Position numbers and translations under genes: made by a program. From Candidatus Nomurabacteria bacterium (GTDB taxonomy: Bacteria > Patescibacteriota > Minisyncoccia > Phycocordibacterales > UBA9973): a DNA stretch of 64,000 bases. The notes under the pieces were generated by a model. That model had not been told where the DNA came from, ran no database searches, and was given only the letters and a program-made list of their open reading frames with translations. Positions 2,125 through 59,886 of the stretch are shown here, piece after piece (the first letter of the stretch is position 1; every line of letters starts with the position of its first letter). The DNA lies in the NCBI GenBank assembly GCA_943350875.1, contig CALRAL010000003.1:25174-89173 (forward strand), in the 5' to 3' direction.

Positions 2125-3375
2125 TTATTCTTTTTCCCCGCCTGCATCGCTATGCGAAACATTGCGGGCAGGTTCAATTATTTCAACTTTTTCTCCGTCA
2201 GTGGAAGCAAGCACTTTGCCTGCCTGCGCAGGCAGGCCATTACCTTTGATGTCTATTCTCCATCCAGTAAGTTTAGCGGCTAGACGTACATTTTGGCCAC
2301 CTTTACCGATGGCGAGTGATAATTGATCATCAGAGACTTCTACTACTGCTTTGTGTTCTTTTTCATCTACTTTAATAGAGATAACTTTGGCTGGGGAGAG
2401 GGAATTAGAAACGAATTGTTTTGGATCGGCAGTCCAAGGGATAATGTCTATTTTTTCTCCACCCAATTCTTGAGTAATAGTATTTACTCTGGTACCTTTT
2501 TGTCCAACACAAGAACCAACTGGGTCGATATGTTCATCGTTAGAGAAGACTGCTATTTTTGAGCGAGCACCTGCTTCACGAGCGATTGATTTTATCTCTA
2601 CCACGCCATTTTCTATCTCTGGTGCTTCGATGGCAAAGAGTTTCTCGATGAATTTAGGATGGGTCCTAGAAAGCCTCAAATTTATTCCTCTTGGTGAGTC
2701 TTCTACAGAATACAAATATGCGCGGATTCTCTGACCTCGGGCAAAATATTCCCCAGGGATTTGTTCCTCAGCAGGGAGGATGCCAGTTGCGCGGTTGAAA
2801 TCAATATAAACATTCCCTCTTTCCACTTTTTGCACTATGCCAGAAATAACTTCTCCTTCTTTGGTGCCATATTCGTCTATGATGGATGTACGTTCTGCTT
2901 CACGGATCTTTTGGATTATGACCTGCTTTGCAGTTTGAGCTGCGATACGTCCATAATCCTCTTTTGGATCCAGTGGAAAGATTATCTCATCATTCAGTTC
3001 CACCCCCTTTTTTATCTTTCTGGCATCTTCGAGCATGATGTGATGTTCTGCATTGAAACGGACTCTTTCATCATCACTCTTAAAGGAATATTCCCCGCCT
3101 GCATCGCTATGCGAAGCATTGCGGGCAGGAGCTTCTTCTCCTTCCTCTTCTATTTTAGCAATAGTTTCATCTACTACTATTTTCACTTGGTAGAAATCAG
3201 CTTTGCCATTCTCCAAATCAAATTTAGCCCTTATTATTTGGCCTTTTTTACCGTAATCTTTCTTGTAAGCGGCGGCCATGGCTTGCTCGATAGCGTCCAA
3301 TATTTTCTCTTTTGGAATTTTCCTTTCTTCCTCTAGTTGCTCTAATGCTGATTTGAATGTTTTTAGATCTAACAT
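2125..3375 (-). CDS. nusA: Transcription termination/antitermination factor NusA. It carries two in-frame palindromic-element insertions.
   Basis: The 416-aa ORF has a NusA N-terminal domain, S1 and tandem KH domains (GGEKIDIIPW, IGKGGQNVRLAAKLTGWRIDI). The peptide PARNxSHSDAGGE occurs twice, each encoded by a copy of a 37-bp palindromic repeat. Confidence 0.9.
   Translation of the reverse strand: MLDLKTFKSALEQLEEERKIPKEKILDAIEQAMAAAYKKDYGKKGQIIRAKFDLENGKADFYQVKIVVDETIAKIEEEGEEAPARNASHSDAGGEYSFKSDDERVRFNAEHHIMLEDARKIKKGVELNDEIIFPLDPKEDYGRIAAQTAKQVIIQKIREAERTSIIDEYGTKEGEVISGIVQKVERGNVYIDFNRATGILPAEEQIPGEYFARGQRIRAYLYSVEDSPRGINLRLSRTHPKFIEKLFAIEAPEIENGVVEIKSIAREAGARSKIAVFSNDEHIDPVGSCVGQKGTRVNTITQELGGEKIDIIPWTADPKQFVSNSLSPAKVISIKVDEKEHKAVVEVSDDQLSLAIGKGGQNVRLAAKLTGWRIDIKGNGLPAQAGKVLASTDGEKVEIIEPARNVSHSDAGGEKE
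2136..2172. repeat. Family-1 palindromic element (CCCCGCCTGCATCGCTATGCGAAACATTGCGGGCAGG), in-frame in the 3' end of nusA
   Basis: It is near-identical to the copy at 3093-3129 and related to 44821-44860. The sequence is an imperfect hairpin and is GC-rich in an AT-rich context. Confidence 0.8.
3093..3129. repeat. Family-1 palindromic element, second copy, in-frame inside nusA
   Basis: It differs from 2136-2172 at one position and encodes APARNASHSDAGGE in the nusA frame. Confidence 0.8.
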
Positions 3376-3446: not shown

Positions 3447-3558
3447 AAAGCCCCAGTTGTGACAGGACTTATACTTGTCTATATTATCACAGTTTACTTT
3501 TTCTTGCAACATACGATTTTATCCACAGATTTTGTTTGTTTCTTAATTTCTTTTTTAG

Positions 3559-6931: not shown

Positions 6932-8680
6932 ATGCAAATCAATCAGGAACAATTGAAGAAATTTATTTTGGAGGCAGGATTAATTTCTCGTTCTGATCTA
7001 GAGGCTGAGGAAAAAAAGGCAGGGGGAAATAAGCAAAGTTTTGGAGATACTCTCTTGTCAGATGGAAAAATTTCTGAGGCAGATCTAAAAAAGATGGAGG
7101 CGTATGTGCTAGGGATTCCTTTTGTAAGTTTAGCAACAGAGAAGATTGATTTCTCTATACTTTCTTTTATCCCTGAACCAATAGCGCGCAATTACAATAT
7201 TATCGCTTACAAAAAGACTGATACAAGTCTCGAAGTGGCGATGTTAGATATAGATAATTTGCCGATAATTGATTTTGTAAAAAAGCGTTCAGGCCTCAAA
7301 GTCTTACCACGACTCACTGATTCTGCTTCTATAAAATCTGCTTTGCTTCAGTATAAGAAAAGTCTACAGGCTGAATTTAGTGACATCATTCAAAAAGAAT
7401 CAAACTCGCTTGACGGCTCTCTGAAAGACGAAGTTGAAGAATCAGAAGAGGAATTAAAGGAGATGGCAGATGATTTGCCGGTGGTAAAGATAGTGGATTC
7501 TCTTGTTTCTCATGCAATTTTACAAAATGCGTCTGATATACATATCGAACCAGGGGAGAATGATCTGACAGTGAGGTACAGGATAGATGGGATACTACAT
7601 GACGCGATGGTACTCGACAAGAAAGCAAGTGCTGGTATCACTGCTCGCATAAAAGTTCTTTCCAATTTGAAACTTGATGAAAAAAGACTGCCTCAAGATG
7701 GTAGGTTTAAAATTGATCAAAATGGTCAACGTGTTTCTTTCCGTGTTTCTACTTTGCCGACATTTTATGGAGAGAAAACTGTTATCAGAATATTGCGAGA
7801 AAGCTCACATGGATTTTCCTTAGAGGGTCTTGGTTTTCATGGAGAGGCGTTAGAGAGGATTCATGATTCACTAAAACAAAAGACAGGCATGGTGCTTGCC
7901 GCTGGGCCGACGGGTTCTGGTAAGACGACTACTCTCTACACCATGCTCGATATGTTGAACAAGCCAGATGTAAATATTTCTACTGTTGAAGATCCTATCG
8001 AATATCAGATGCCGAGGATAAATCAGACCCAAGTGAAGTCTGAAATTGGTCTTACTTTTGCCAATGGACTCCGCTCACTCCTACGTCAAGATCCAGATGT
8101 AATAATGGTGGGGGAGATTCGTGATAAAGAGACGGCTGGACTAGCGGTCAATGCTTCACTCACTGGGCACTTGGTGCTATCTACTATCCATACAAACTCC
8201 GCATCTGGAGCTATTCCTAGAATGATAGACATGGGAGTGGAACCATTTTTGATAATTTCTACTGTAAAAACAATTATTGCTCAGAGACTGGTGCGTAAAT
8301 TGACTTCAGGTAAAAAAGAATATTTTTTGTCTTCGGCTGAAATAAAAAACATGGCGAAATATGTTGATTTAGAAAAAATGCTTAGGATTTTAAAAGAAGA
8401 AAAAGTTATAGGACCGAATGCAGTTTGGGATAAAATACCTTTTTATAAACCAGTCAAGGATGCTTCTTCAGAAGATGGATATTCTGGTCGGGTAGGTATA
8501 CACGAAGTGTTAAAAGTTACATCGACTATAAAAGAAATGATCATAAAAGGGTCGTCAGAAGATGAGATAGAGACTCAGGCTAAAAAAGAAGGAATGACAA
8601 CTATGCTTGAAGATGGGATTTTTAAAGCTATATCTGGGGAGACATCTATCGAAGAAGTCTTTCGTGTTATTTCCGAATAA
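6932..8680 (+). CDS. pilB: Type IV pilus assembly ATPase PilB (GspE family)
   Basis: 582 aa with the N-terminal GSPII domain, Walker A GPTGSGKTTT, Asp box and Walker B (VDPDVIMVGEIRD), and the conserved histidine box. Confidence 0.85.
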   Translation: MQINQEQLKKFILEAGLISRSDLEAEEKKAGGNKQSFGDTLLSDGKISEADLKKMEAYVLGIPFVSLATEKIDFSILSFIPEPIARNYNIIAYKKTDTSLEVAMLDIDNLPIIDFVKKRSGLKVLPRLTDSASIKSALLQYKKSLQAEFSDIIQKESNSLDGSLKDEVEESEEELKEMADDLPVVKIVDSLVSHAILQNASDIHIEPGENDLTVRYRIDGILHDAMVLDKKASAGITARIKVLSNLKLDEKRLPQDGRFKIDQNGQRVSFRVSTLPTFYGEKTVIRILRESSHGFSLEGLGFHGEALERIHDSLKQKTGMVLAAGPTGSGKTTTLYTMLDMLNKPDVNISTVEDPIEYQMPRINQTQVKSEIGLTFANGLRSLLRQDPDVIMVGEIRDKETAGLAVNASLTGHLVLSTIHTNSASGAIPRMIDMGVEPFLIISTVKTIIAQRLVRKLTSGKKEYFLSSAEIKNMAKYVDLEKMLRILKEEKVIGPNAVWDKIPFYKPVKDASSEDGYSGRVGIHEVLKVTSTIKEMIIKGSSEDEIETQAKKEGMTTMLEDGIFKAISGETSIEEVFRVISE

Positions 8681-36514: not shown

Positions 36515-36577
36515 ATAACAGGAAAAATCACTGTAACCGGCGTAAGTGATTTTTCAAAACTTCAACATAAGAAGTTT

Positions 36578-36796
36578 TTAACCGCGTGGTGGAAATGGAT
36601 CGTTTCCAAAAGAGTTTCTTTCACGAATTTTGCCATCTCGTCCGTGGATGAGAAGTTCAACTTGGTATGCTATTGCAAGTGATGTACCAGAATCTATGAT
36701 TTCTGATTGTGTCTTTGCTGTAAATACCGGATATGGATTGTGTTCTTGTTTGAGTGCCCAGTTTTGTCCGTTTTTTACTACATGTAGATTACTCAT
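36578..36796 (-). CDS. DUF2188-like small protein
   Basis: 72 aa with the C-terminal LIHGRDGKIRERNSFGNDPFPPRG signature, which I recall as typical of the DUF2188 family. Called from memory of the family consensus. Confidence 0.35.
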   Translation of the reverse strand: MSNLHVVKNGQNWALKQEHNPYPVFTAKTQSEIIDSGTSLAIAYQVELLIHGRDGKIRERNSFGNDPFPPRG

Positions 36797-36951
36797 AATG
36801 AATTTGAATTAAAGTTTTATTATTTTAGTTCTGTAATTTTCATTTCTTCGATTTCAGTGCCGGTTTCTGGTAAGCCGAAATGTAGACCTACATTTGCATT
36901 ATAGCATATTTTTTATTGAATCCAAAATTTTGCCGACGAAGAGGGGGATTG

Positions 36952-37118
36952 ACTTGAACGAAGCTCATGAACTCTGGCAAGAGCTTTAACTTTAACTTCA
37001 CCACTCAGCTAGGCCTTACCTATCAATTAACAAGGCCCAAAATCAATCTACTTTACTCAACTAAAGTGTAGAATGGTTTTTGGGGTTCTGTGAATTATCA
37101 TTACTGTGATAGACTTAG
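36952..37118 (+). repeat. Direct repeat copy A of an approximately 170-bp repeat (AACGAAGCTCATGAACTCTGGCAAGAGCTTTAACTTT ... ATCAATCTACTTTACTCAACTAAAGTGTAGAATGG...)
   Basis: Approximately 85-90% identical to copy B at 37352-37520. It contains a degenerate CTAGGC..CCTA hairpin. Confidence 0.7.
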
Positions 37119-37127
37119 CAAGTGAAA

Positions 37128-37304
37128 GAAGAAAATAATGTTGCCTATATAGACGGAGCTAACTTGCACAATGGTGTGGAAACTTTAGATTGGGAATTTG
37201 ATTACAAACGCTTCAGAGTATGGTTAAAAGAAAAATACAGTGTTAAGCAAGCTTATTTATTTCTAGGATTAATTCCAAAATATAAAGATCTTTGAATAGT
37301 AAGA
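37128..37304 (+). pseudogene. Truncated NYN-domain gene fragment (VKEENNVAYIDGANLHNGVETLDWEFDYKRFRVWLKEKYSVKQAYLFLGLIPKYKDL*)
   Basis: I translated it by hand. It is homologous to the N-terminal 60 aa of the NYN protein at 10021..10542, has a GTG start and a premature stop, and is flanked by the 170-bp direct repeats. Confidence 0.45.
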
Positions 37305-37351
37305 ACCGTTCTTGCTATAGGACATGACTTCAAGAACTTATCGATGAAACT

Positions 37352-37520
37352 GGATTAGATGTAAACGAAGCTCATGAACTCTGGCAAGAGTTTTAACTTT
37401 CATTCTATGAATTGCTAGGCAAGACCTAGCAATTACAATTAACAAGGCCCAGAATCAATCTACTTTACTAAACTAAAGTGTAGAATGTTTTTTTGATTCT
37501 GTAAATCGTCATAGTAATTT
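37352..37520 (+). repeat. Direct repeat copy B of the approximately 170-bp repeat, containing the GCTAGGCAAGACCTAGC hairpin
   Basis: See copy A. Its internal hairpin is identical to the rpsR terminator core at 57466-57482. Confidence 0.7.
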
Positions 37521-37536
37521 TAATATTTCAGAGAGC

Positions 37537-38650: not shown

Positions 38651-38777
38651 TTTCTTAGTAAAAACTACCCTTAAAATAGTTTCGTATAATCAGCTAGGCC
38701 TTGCCTAGCAGTTTTGCTCGGTTTTAGGCTGATAACCGTGAAAAATGGCATTAAAAACACAGCTTTTCACGATTATG

Positions 38778-57249: not shown

Positions 57250-57450
57250 ATGAAACAAGATTATTTTTCAGCCAACAACATAAAACACATAGATTACAAA
57301 GATATTGAGATCTTAAGTAAATTCATCAACCCAAATGGCAAGATTTTAAGCCACAAGAAGACTGGGGTGACAGCTAAAAACCAGCGTCAACTCTCAGGAG
57401 CCATCAAAAACGCTCGTTTTATGGGCCTTTTGCCTTTCGTAGCGAAGTAG
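57250..57450 (+). CDS. rpsR: 30S ribosomal protein S18
   Basis: IDYKDIEILSKFI...RQLSGAIKNARFMGLLPF. Confidence 0.85.
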   Translation: MKQDYFSANNIKHIDYKDIEILSKFINPNGKILSHKKTGVTAKNQRQLSGAIKNARFMGLLPFVAK

Positions 57451-57456
57451 TTTAGT

Positions 57457-57491
57457 GTCAAAGTTGCTAGGCAAGACCTAGCAACTTTGAC
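57457..57491 (+). terminator. Rho-independent terminator with a perfect 15-bp stem (GTCAAAGTTGCTAGG-CAAGA-CCTAGCAACTTTGAC) plus T-rich tail
   Basis: Immediately 3' of rpsR. The core GCTAGGCAAGACCTAGC recurs at 37405 and, in variant form, at 38699 and 59830. Confidence 0.7.
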
Positions 57492-57527
57492 TTTATATGT
57501 TAATAACTTTGCCTTTACTTCTCGCGC

Positions 57528-57538
57528 GGGGGGGGGGG
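57528..57538. repeat. Homopolymeric G11 tract upstream of a surface-protein gene
   Basis: GGGGGGGGGGG sits in an AT-rich intergenic region about 95 bp upstream of the ATG at 57632. Confidence 0.8.
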
Positions 57539-57604
57539 TTATACTTACCTTATGCTTAAAAGGTGTATCTTTTTGAGCTTTAAAATTAACTTATTTCAGC
57601 CATA

Positions 57605-57628
57605 GGCTGATCCGCCTTGGGCGGAAAA
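57605..57628. repeat. Family-4 palindromic element (GGCTGATCCGCCTTGGGCGGAAAA) immediately upstream of the 57632 start codon
   Basis: Matches 62428-62451 in ftsK and 40685-40717 in ileS. Confidence 0.7.
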
Positions 57629-59770
57629 ATTATGAAAAAATATATAGGAATTTTGTTTGTTTTGAGTTTTTTGATTGCCTCACCGAGTTTTGTTTTCGCT
57701 GCTCAGGATGGAGATCTTGATCCAGCCGATGTCGGAGCGAGTTGTGCCGATATTACTCATGACTTGCGTTATAGGATGCGAGATACTGCTACTAATGATG
57801 ACATTGCTGTCTTGCAAGATTTCTTGAATAGTAATGGATATACGACTGTATCTCCAGCTGGATTCTTCGGAACTTCTACCTTGAAAGCGGTTAAAAAGTT
57901 TCAGTCTGCCAATGGTTTGCGTCAAACTGGTTTCGTTGGTCCTAAAACTCGTGCCAAAATAAAAGCGATTGATTGTGGAGATGTAATTGTTCCCCCTGTT
58001 GCCGGTGCTCCTTGTATTTCTATAAATAGTCCATTAGCTAATTCGCAAGTTGCTCTTCCTTTTACTGTGAGAGGTGTATTTAATGATGACAGAAGTGAAA
58101 GACCTACAGGGTGTTCAATGTGGAAATTCTTTGAAGGACAGGCTGGGACAGCTAAATTACATTACAAGAATAATGGCTCTTGGTTTTCTCTAGGTGGAGT
58201 AAAAGTTATTCCAGTTTCTGATTGGATGTCATCAGGACCAAAATCTTTTTCTGTGATTATGGATTTGAAGGGTGGTAGTGGTGTTGACGCCATGTATTCA
58301 TTCAAAGACGGTATGCCATTGGAGGTTGTATTTCAAGAAGAAGATCCTTCGGGCATGGGTCATGGTAAAGCTTTTACATTACCACTTGTATATAAATCTA
58401 CAGTCACTCCTCCTACCACCCCATCCATTACAGTCCTTTCTCCAAATGGAGGGGAGACATATACAGCGGGACAACAGATTATGGTGAAATGGAACAGTTC
58501 AAATATTACATATCCAGTTTCAATTTATCTAGATAAAGTACCTGTAGGATATATTCCATCTTTTAGTAATGTAATATCTAGAGTTACTTTAGTTTCTAGT
58601 ACACCTAATGATGGACAAGAACAAATTACATTACCAAATTCTTCTGATTGGTTTTCTGGTCAAAAGCAATATGCTGTGACTGTATCTCCAGTAGAGTCAT
58701 CAGGTCTTGATGTTGCTGATATTTCTAATAATTCATTTACAATCAACGCCCCATCTTCCACCAATCCTCCCGTTATTGATGGCGTCTCTGGACCTTCAAC
58801 ATTAAACACAGGTGCGACAGGTACTTGGACAGTCACAGCTCACGATTCAAATGCTGGTAATTTGTCATACTCTGTAGTCTGGGGTGATGAAGGTTCTAAG
58901 AGAGCTATGGCTTCTTCTACCACATCTCAAACAGCTACATTTACACATGTTTACAGTACTGCTGGGAATTATGTTCCTACCTTTACAGTCACAAACATGA
59001 CAACCAATCAGAGTGCTACTACTAGTTTGAGTGTAAATGTGACAGCTACAACTCCTTCTCTATCTGTAGTTTTGTCTAGAAATACAGCTTATATAAATCA
59101 GAGTTTCTATACTAACAGTACTCATAAAAAAATTGCTTCATTTACAATACAAGCTGGAGGTTCTCAAGGTGTTCATGTAAACAATTTTCAGATGGATTTT
59201 TCTGGATATAATCCAGGAAGTATTGCTCCTACAGGTATTTCTAACTTAGGCATATATTCAAATGGTGTTCAGCTTGGTTCAACTATTGCTACTGTCCTTA
59301 CTATCAATAATGTCCCAATGAACTTCAATATAGTTGCTGGCAATACTTCTGTTATTGATGTTTATGCTGATTTAGGATCTTCAGCTGGTTCCTTGATAGT
59401 ACCATTAAATGCAAGTGGAATTGGTCTCGTATCTGGAACTACTTTCTCTACCCAGACAATGAATGGTCAAACAATCACTGTGAAGATTCCAACCCCTCCT
59501 CAAATATTTGGTGTCTCTGGTCCTTCATCGTTAGGTCCAAATCAAATGGGAACTTGGACAGTATCATCTCATGATAATAATACTGGTACTTTGCAATATG
59601 CCGTAAATTGGGGTGAATCAGATCCAAATTATTATCCACAATCAACTTCTGTTTTTACTCATGCTTATAAAACTGTGGGGACATATACAGCTACATATAT
59701 TGTCACGAATACTGCAACAGGTCAGTACACACAAAAGACATTTAGTACAAAAATCAGTTTAATTAATTAA
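57617..59770 (+). CDS. Secreted cell-surface protein with a peptidoglycan-binding (PG_binding_1) domain and tandem PKD/Ig-like domains
   Basis: Signal peptide MKKYIGILFVLSFLIASPSFVFA, so the likely true start is 57632. The PG-binding motif is LQDFLNSNGYTTVSPAGFFGTSTLKAVKKFQSANGL. The repeated PKD-like blocks are TGTWTVTAHDSNAGNLSYSVVWGDEGS and MGTWTVSSHDNNTGTLQYAVNWGESD. Confidence 0.6.
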   Translation: MGGKIMKKYIGILFVLSFLIASPSFVFAAQDGDLDPADVGASCADITHDLRYRMRDTATNDDIAVLQDFLNSNGYTTVSPAGFFGTSTLKAVKKFQSANGLRQTGFVGPKTRAKIKAIDCGDVIVPPVAGAPCISINSPLANSQVALPFTVRGVFNDDRSERPTGCSMWKFFEGQAGTAKLHYKNNGSWFSLGGVKVIPVSDWMSSGPKSFSVIMDLKGGSGVDAMYSFKDGMPLEVVFQEEDPSGMGHGKAFTLPLVYKSTVTPPTTPSITVLSPNGGETYTAGQQIMVKWNSSNITYPVSIYLDKVPVGYIPSFSNVISRVTLVSSTPNDGQEQITLPNSSDWFSGQKQYAVTVSPVESSGLDVADISNNSFTINAPSSTNPPVIDGVSGPSTLNTGATGTWTVTAHDSNAGNLSYSVVWGDEGSKRAMASSTTSQTATFTHVYSTAGNYVPTFTVTNMTTNQSATTSLSVNVTATTPSLSVVLSRNTAYINQSFYTNSTHKKIASFTIQAGGSQGVHVNNFQMDFSGYNPGSIAPTGISNLGIYSNGVQLGSTIATVLTINNVPMNFNIVAGNTSVIDVYADLGSSAGSLIVPLNASGIGLVSGTTFSTQTMNGQTITVKIPTPPQIFGVSGPSSLGPNQMGTWTVSSHDNNTGTLQYAVNWGESDPNYYPQSTSVFTHAYKTVGTYTATYIVTNTATGQYTQKTFSTKISLIN

Positions 59771-59810: not shown

Positions 59811-59886
59811 AAATCCCTAAGGTTAGCCTAGGGATTTTGCGTTAGGTCTTGCCTAACGCACAAATACACAGGCGTTGCCTGTGTAT
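59811..59886 (+). terminator. Three consecutive GC-rich hairpins (CCCTAAGG..CCTAGGG; GCGTTAGGTCTTGCCTAACGC; GCACAAATACACAGGCGTTGCCTGTGTATTTGTGC) between the convergent PKD-protein gene and efp
   Basis: Stems seen directly. The third resembles the REP palindrome TACACAGG..CCTGTGTA. They are probably bidirectional terminators and REP-like elements. Confidence 0.55.

Follow-up and report, generated by a model that had tools for sequence, protein, structure and literature searches.

A G11 tract beside the -10 hexamer of a secreted protein gene in Candidatus Nomurabacteria is a candidate slippage-prone promoter switch

What is an uninterrupted run of eleven Gs doing just upstream of a gene for a secreted protein in an AT-rich bacterial genome? 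The question is raised by a locus of a Candidatus Nomurabacteria bacterium, and it was addressed in a window of 64,000 bp, which is the whole stretch of DNA that was analysed. The window has a GC content of 36%, and the G11 tract is its sole G or C run of 7 nt or more. The runner-up is a single G6, and C runs of 6 nt or more were not found in the window. For the window, an iid model predicts 0.0015 G or C runs of at least 11 nt and a first-order Markov model predicts 0.008, so the preliminary description of the locus was right to call such a tract very improbable in this genome. Four G8 words were observed, all within the G11 tract, compared with 0.42 in dinucleotide shuffles. Contingency loci are a textbook feature of pathogens adapted to a host, among them Neisseria, Haemophilus, Campylobacter and Mycoplasma, and bacteria of the CPR/Patescibacteria are thought to live attached to other cells. 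Judged from its sequence and from that of its relatives, the tract described here is probably a slippage-prone expression switch like those of pathogens.

The features of the locus are listed in Table 1. The tract begins 37 nt after the hairpin of the rpsR terminator, and 93 nt separate its end from the ATG of a gene for a 712-aa protein, in agreement with the earlier placement just past this terminator and about 95 bp before a start codon. The ATG at 57632 was favoured over a TTG at 57617 because the N-terminus MKKYIGIL was invariant among the homologues. The product, earlier described as a secreted surface protein of about 700 aa, has a Sec-type signal peptide (MKKYIGILFVLSFLIASPSFVFA), a PG_binding_1 domain (PF01471, residues 55-110, 1e-14) and PKD domains (PKD_4, 1e-10), which is in keeping with that description. 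It is thus a surface or secreted structure, the kind of product that contingency loci regulate, and the fact that a secreted, wall-binding protein with Ig-like domains belongs to the usual class of contingency targets counts for a switch. The closest relatives in the genome databases were MAGs of Paceibacteria, Nomurabacteria and Minisyncoccia. Nucleotides 1 to about 30 of the coding sequence (ATGAAAAAATATATAGGAATTTTGTTT, 57632-57661 of the window) were near-identical as DNA in three of the related loci (L008, L009 and L010), whose proteins are only 40-50% identical, and this pattern points to a putative conserved 5' expression cassette joined to a variable protein body. A paralogous gene for a 1247-aa PG_binding_1 protein just past the window end had no G tract upstream. 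At gathering thresholds Rfam gave zero matches in the window, and neither tRNA nor tmRNA genes were found in it.

Table 1. Features around the G11 tract (positions in the window).
Feature	Position	Strand	Basis or remark
rpsR (ribosomal protein S18), last gene of the rpsF-ssb-rpsR operon	57250..57450	+	ORF; PF01084 on identical product
rpsR terminator, perfect 15-bp hairpin, copy of a REP-like palindrome (core GCTAGGCAAGRCCTAGC)	57457..57491	+	terminator scan, inverted repeat
Degenerate copy TGTTAATAAC of the conserved upstream box TGTGGATAAC (DnaA-box-like 9-mer)	57498..57507	+	alignment A2
-35-like hexamer TTTACT (4/6)	57514..57519	+	register and hexamer as in L017
Promoter spacer of 20 nt (TCTCGCGC + G11 + T)	57520..57539	+	18 nt in allele L005 (G9)
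G11 homopolymeric tract GGGGGGGGGGG	57528-57538	+	candidate slipped-strand mutable element
-10 hexamer TATACT (5/6)	57540..57545	+	near-invariant in the promoters of the gene family
First 5'-UTR hairpin, about 2 nt past the predicted transcription start	57554..57578	+	folding
Two more 5'-UTR hairpins, CAGCCATAGGCTG and TCCGCCTTGGGCGGA, just before the start codon	57596..57625	+	kept in a Nomurabacteria relative (L010, L012)
Gene of the 712-aa secreted protein, downstream of the tract	57632..59770	+	ORF, domain search

The tract had been assigned to a promoter region, and this assignment is supported by the hexamers around it. A single base separates the Gs from TATACT, a -10 hexamer conserved throughout the gene family, and the tract falls within the spacer between this hexamer and a -35 candidate that is weak in the window and strong in the second allele of the source organism, contig L005. 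A consensus promoter scanner made no promoter call for the window allele. The window aligned without gaps to the locus L017 over TTTACTT, the following 7 nt and G(n), and its spacer exceeds that of L017 by 2 nt, which are an additional G and the T that follows the tract. Elsewhere in the window, consensus TATAAT was found 6-10 nt before the starts at 6932, 25645, 38808, 45108, 54202(-), 21327, 60474(-) and 62167(-). The presence of TATAAT at this distance from the starts of most window genes indicates that the -10 elements are of the sigma-70 type and that short or absent leaders are usual here, and it suggests that leaderless or near-leaderless mRNAs may be common in the source organism.

Other readings of the same nucleotides were tried and rejected. 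A TATAAT-like box downstream (TGTATCTT, TATAAT in L008 and L017), 16-18 nt past TATACT, is less likely to be the real -10, since it was not conserved across the family in our alignment (A2) and also lies within the loop of a hairpin preserved in both alleles. A terminator-like call, CTTCTCGCGCGGGGGGGGG, is not credible because it needs G-T pairs between CTTCTC and the G run. A switch by frameshift was rejected, as the only ORFs that cross the tract are spurious ones of 20 aa and 29 aa. A local inversion (inverton) was rejected as well: no inverted repeats bracket the promoter, it was not found in both orientations, and the alternative flank of L005 is missing from the window on both strands and is not the reverse complement of window sequence.

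Homologous genes were fetched from GTDB genomes and JGI metagenomes, and the same promoter layout was found in front of them. In at least 8 other lineages of Paceibacteria, homologous genes have in front of them the order box, TTGCTT or TTTACT, G(n) and TATACT, with runs of G6 to G11. The run was always on the sense strand and lay 0-2 nt upstream of TATACT, TACACT, TAAAAT or TAAACT. Its length was G11 in L052, G10 in L017 and L026, G9 in L007/L013 and L025, G8 in L024 and L030, and G7, G6, G5 and G4 in the P0056 group, L008, L015 and L027, respectively. The family consensus from alignment A2 was TGTGGATAACTATTTTGCTTTTTCGTnnG(n)TATACTTA. The last four Gs did not vary in this alignment, and neither did T, A, A and T within the hexamer. 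All G or C runs of 8 nt or more in 227 kb of related loci were located at promoters of this gene family. A G run was missing at the tract position in the family members L009 and L010/L012. In L024 and L030 the -10 hexamer lies 7-8 nt before the ATG, and leaders across the lineages ranged from 13 to 184 nt, those of lineages other than these two measuring 54-184 nt. Since tract and hexamer keep their fixed position relative to each other despite this variation, the tract belongs with the promoter rather than with the leader.

The upstream part of the layout was less regular. The spacer between the -10 and the TTGCTT, TTTACT or TTGACT hexamer clustered at 15-18 nt, with outliers of 13, 19 and 20 nt. 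It measured 17 nt in L007 and L030, 18 nt in L017, L026 and L005, and 16, 15, 19 and 13 nt in L025, L024, L052 and L008, respectively, with 20 nt in the window. The -35 candidates were weak (3-4/6), and the spacers of 13 and 15 nt in some lineages look non-functional. A perfect TGTGGATAA was found at a fixed place upstream of the tract in L008 (position 988), L017 (2858), L024 (2932) and L026 (2779), and the distance from the upstream box to the -10 was 23-37 nt across the relatives. DnaA boxes numbered 18 in 292 kb compared with 3.6 expected, with several of them within one conserved coding stretch. DnaA-box 9-mers in the window occur at 57498-57506 (2 mismatches) and at 3519. Viral contigs scanned for GGGGGGGGTATACTTA gave zero matches.

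A comparison of strains had been proposed as a check on the switch, and it revealed that tract length varies among relatives, both in the source organism and in a sister lineage. The source organism carries G11 in the window and in ERZ27280321, and G9 in contig L005 of ERZ27280322. L005 and the window have only 7 differences in 6.4 kb, all of them within the promoter and leader. One of these, T57516G, converts the -35 hexamer TTTACT to TTGACT (5/6), and for L005 the scanner called the promoter TTGACT-18-TATACT (10/12). The remaining six substitutions lie within 57558-57570, in the first leader hairpin. This cluster, with the fold kept, looks like local recombination or diversifying change rather than random drift. 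The shared sequence is preceded in L005 by 56 nt of a different flank. With this other flank and its 7 linked SNPs, the G9 allele makes up a haplotype of its own and is not a pure slippage variant. In the L017 lineage, L017 and L052 have G10 and G11, respectively, at 99.8% identity over 3.1 kb and with identical flanks, a difference of one G that lies within homopolymer sequencing and assembly error, tract lengths in Illumina-based assemblies being uncertain by about 1. All of these polymorphisms are differences between consensus sequences of samples or strains.

Short tracts, in contrast to the long ones, did not vary in 13 assemblies, which comprised five with G8 at 99.6-99.9% identity, two with G8 at 94-97% identity, four with G7 and two with G6. 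The L026 lineage had G10 unchanged between two assemblies, and L007 and L013 both had G9. Length variation was confined to tracts of G9 or longer, which fits the length dependence of slippage. Several contigs were interrupted in or near the tract. Contig L002 of ERZ27280322 has the window-type upstream flank and ends four Gs into the tract, in the two Logan runs of the source organism the contigs with the flanking genes leave a gap from 57480 to 57598, and a Logan contig of another lineage begins exactly at its own G7. Because the tract breaks short-read assemblies here, the genes and promoters of this family may be under-recovered in MAGs.

Contig breaks of this kind, together with the error-proneness of short reads in homopolymer length, are what could be said for an artefact of sequencing or assembly, either poly-G from two-colour chemistry or a chimeric join, a caveat that the preliminary description had itself raised. 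However, the tract is an internal one, bordered left and right by unique sequence, and an independent MEGAHIT contig (ERZ27280321 k141_192332) was 100% identical to the window over 12 kb, including the G11, and keeps the gene order across it. Moreover, in different species and in unrelated datasets (JGI, ENA, NCBI and Logan) a G run sits at the equivalent position of homologous promoters, and this recurrence effectively rules out an artefact, which we regard as extremely improbable. It is also highly improbable that the run belongs to the RNA or DNA structure of a mobile element (IS200/IS605-type or REP/RAYT-associated), or to a relic of one, and not to a promoter. A permissive search gave a weak full-length match to RF03065 (IS605-orfB-I) at 57454-57639, five REP-like hairpins occur in the window, the rpsR terminator among them, the segment 54190-54966 codes for a Y1_Tnp protein, and the promoter of the G9 allele adjoins a palindromic element. 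But at 23.1 bits the match falls well short of the 94.2 bits set as the gathering threshold, its E would be about 0.7 when scaled to the whole window, and it rests mainly on the hairpin loop GCAAGAC, so that membership of the RNA family was rejected and the match probably reflects the REP-like terminator hairpin. L024 and L030 keep G(n)-TATACT with neither the REP hairpin nor the leader, and no tnpB is adjacent to the tract.

With the run accepted as part of a promoter, the question is whether its length matters. It might instead be a fixed, sequence-specific promoter element whose length changes are slow neutral drift, with no switching; such an element could be an extended -10 G, a rigid G-rich spacer or a factor-binding site. 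We consider this unlikely, though it accounts for several observations, namely that the last four Gs and the adjacent TAtAcT are invariant across diverged species, that the run is always G on the sense strand, that G or TG stands just upstream of TATAAT at other promoters of the window, and that G6-G8 were stable over 94-99.9% identity and the G10 of L026 did not change. It also has a precedent in the T-tract of Mycoplasma agalactiae vpma, likewise a homopolymer immediately upstream of the -10 in the promoter of a variable surface protein, which makes no contribution to phase variation (PMC2268961); the position of a tract alone is therefore no proof of a switch. What speaks against a fixed element is that run length varies from 4 to 11 at an otherwise alignable position and differs between strains of 99.8% identity, that 9-11 identical bases would be neither needed nor tolerated by a sequence-specific site, that some family members (L009 and L010/L012) have no G run there, and that long uninterrupted runs decay fast without selection. 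Alternatively, the tract could be a slippage switch that acts by phasing, setting the distance or helical face between an activator-bound TGTGGATAAC-like box and the -10. The Bordetella fim C-stretch and the Neisseria nadA TAAA repeat act in this way, but for the present locus we think it improbable. The conserved box 23-37 nt upstream of the -10, its perfect form in four relatives, the weak -35 hexamers, as in activator-dependent promoters, and the fim precedent (PMC1891110) are all consistent with phasing. Yet the box of the window is degenerate (TGTTAATAA, 2 mismatches), in the G9 allele other sequence stands in place of the box and there is a near-consensus -35 instead, and the distance from the box to the -10 is inconstant.

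On balance we favour the reading, already given in the preliminary description, that the tract is a functional, slippage-mutable promoter element and a candidate contingency locus. A run of 11 Gs is much longer than the composition of the genome predicts and exceeds the length of about 8 nt from which such loci are recognised, and length differs among close strains, with identical flanks in L017 and L052 and with linked changes in the G11 and G9 alleles. Slipped-strand mispairing in replication would add or remove Gs, and each gain or loss would shift the distance between the -35-like hexamer and the -10. The optimum of the sigma-70 spacer is 17 +/- 1 nt. A tract of G8-G9 would give a productive spacer of 17-18 nt, whereas the G11 of the window, with its 20-nt spacer and weak -35, would be a low or OFF state under sigma-70 rules, and the G9/TTGACT allele would be an ON state under the same rules. 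Transcription would start near 57552 and produce a leader of about 80 nt that opens with a stabilising 5' hairpin. We infer which hexamer acts as the -35 and where transcription starts, and likewise that tract length governs transcription and that switching is reversible and occurs at high frequency.

The closest parallels in tract length, location and class of regulated gene are porA (poly-G) and opc (poly-C) of Neisseria meningitidis, in which the length of a spacer tract is described as setting expression via slipped-strand mispairing (van der Ende 1995 and Sarkari 1994, cited in PMC5084427). There, as probably here too, the spacer between the -35 and the -10 of an outer-surface protein gene contains a G or C homopolymer of about 9-13 nt. 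The host, however, is a member of the Patescibacteria/CPR and not a proteobacterial pathogen, the switch is a candidate, the tract directly abuts the -10, and many species and paralogues have kept the cassette in its entirety. In mycoplasmas, transcription of vlp of M. hyorhinis, maa2 of M. arthritidis and vmm of M. mycoides is switched ON or OFF by insertions and deletions between the -35 and the -10 (PMC2268961). With vlp the present locus has in common a reduced, AT-rich genome, a host-dependent life and a family of surface proteins that share a promoter and signal-peptide 5' cassette and have divergent bodies. The vlp tract is poly-A and its products are lipoproteins encoded in a clustered multigene locus, whereas here the tract is poly-G, the protein is secreted and PG-binding, and the genes are dispersed.

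In Bordetella pertussis, a single base in the C-stretch of fim2, fim3 and fimX alters the transcript level about fourfold, and the length of the stretch is polymorphic among strains (PMC1891110). There, too, a long C or G homopolymer lies in the promoter of a surface structure beside a conserved upstream box; the fim promoters work with the activator BvgA, whereas the G9 allele described here has a near-consensus -35. Poly-G or poly-C loci of Campylobacter and Helicobacter, as described in PMC8355987, have tracts of at least 8 nt in small AT-rich genomes and are hypermutable for surface-structure genes. Those tracts are mostly intragenic and act by frameshift, unlike the present one, which is located in a promoter and spanned by no substantial ORF.

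The combination of box, -35, G(n) and TATACT with a conserved signal-peptide start is common to a diversified family of Paceibacteria surface proteins and might therefore make up a family-wide switch of surface composition. We put forward only tentatively the wider proposal that this poly-G promoter and signal-peptide cassette, conserved by vertical descent, brings about stochastic ON/OFF expression of PG-binding, Ig-like surface proteins across the Paceibacteria, as a form of bet-hedging with G11 and G9 as co-existing OFF and ON states. On that proposal, the G11 allele with its weak -35 and the G9 allele with its consensus -35 and abutting palindromic element would be OFF-type and ON-type states within one community. 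If true, the uncultivated CPR/Patescibacteria episymbionts would have their first described contingency system of the simple-sequence kind, and it would mean bet-hedging in host attachment or evasion of recognition by the host or by phages. A heritable, reversible switch on a wall-binding protein would also flag proteins that mediate contact with the host, and G(8 or more)-TATACT would be a sequence signature for finding such genes in metagenomes. Two things are new: the lineage that hosts the locus, and the fact that promoter, tract and signal-peptide start have been conserved together in a diversified family of genes. In the portion of the full-text literature that was searched, no paper was found that joins Patescibacteria, the Candidate Phyla Radiation or Saccharibacteria with promoter phase variation of the SSR type; the nearest case is an intragenic hypervariable 9-mer repeat in a Gracilibacterium, ascribed to slipped-strand processes (PMC6851277).

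The leader between promoter and gene is structured. The 5' UTR of the 712-aa gene (57552-57645) folds into three hairpins with -28.2 kcal/mol (z = -4.5), and the leader of L005 still folds, with -27.4 kcal/mol (z = -3.7). The first hairpin forms in both alleles although they differ by 6 substitutions within 13 nt of it, which supports transcription from the predicted promoter, and the position of this hairpin would suit a 5' mRNA stabiliser. The last hairpin, TCCGCCTTGGGCGGA, ends 6 nt before the ATG and covers the sole purine-rich, SD-like stretch. Hairpins of a similar kind containing GCTAAAGC precede other genes, including nusA at 3375(-) in the window and genes in L008, L017 and L029.

Repeats are another feature of the region. 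REP-like hairpins with the core GCTAGGCAAGRCCTAGC were found at 37008-37024(-), 37414-37430(+), 38693-38709(-), 57466-57482(+) and 59841-59857(-), five compared with 0 expected. Two oppositely oriented copies, one in the rpsR terminator and one just past the gene, bracket the 712-aa gene and its promoter. Two others lie in the 1 kb of 36515-37536, which has no ORF of 80 aa or more and is situated between a 1037-aa gene and a MerR/HTH gene beside a Fic-domain gene. The gene of the Y1_Tnp protein (IS200-like, PF01797, 33 bits) stands on the + strand amid housekeeping genes and may encode a REP-associated tyrosine transposase (RAYT), one that could relate to the REP-like hairpins. A second palindromic element, with the conserved ends CCCGCACACTTA and TAAGTGTGCGGGT, was not found within the window and occurs in at least two species, at 1-45 of L005, at about 1975-2050 of L043 and at 5807-5876 of L030. 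Its right half supplies the alternative flank of the G9 allele, where it adjoins the -35, and in L030 it stands directly upstream of the 23S rRNA gene. In the source organism (L043, just past the window end) the element lies upstream of the 1247-aa PG_binding_1 paralogue and is followed by a perfect DnaA box, TTATCCACA.
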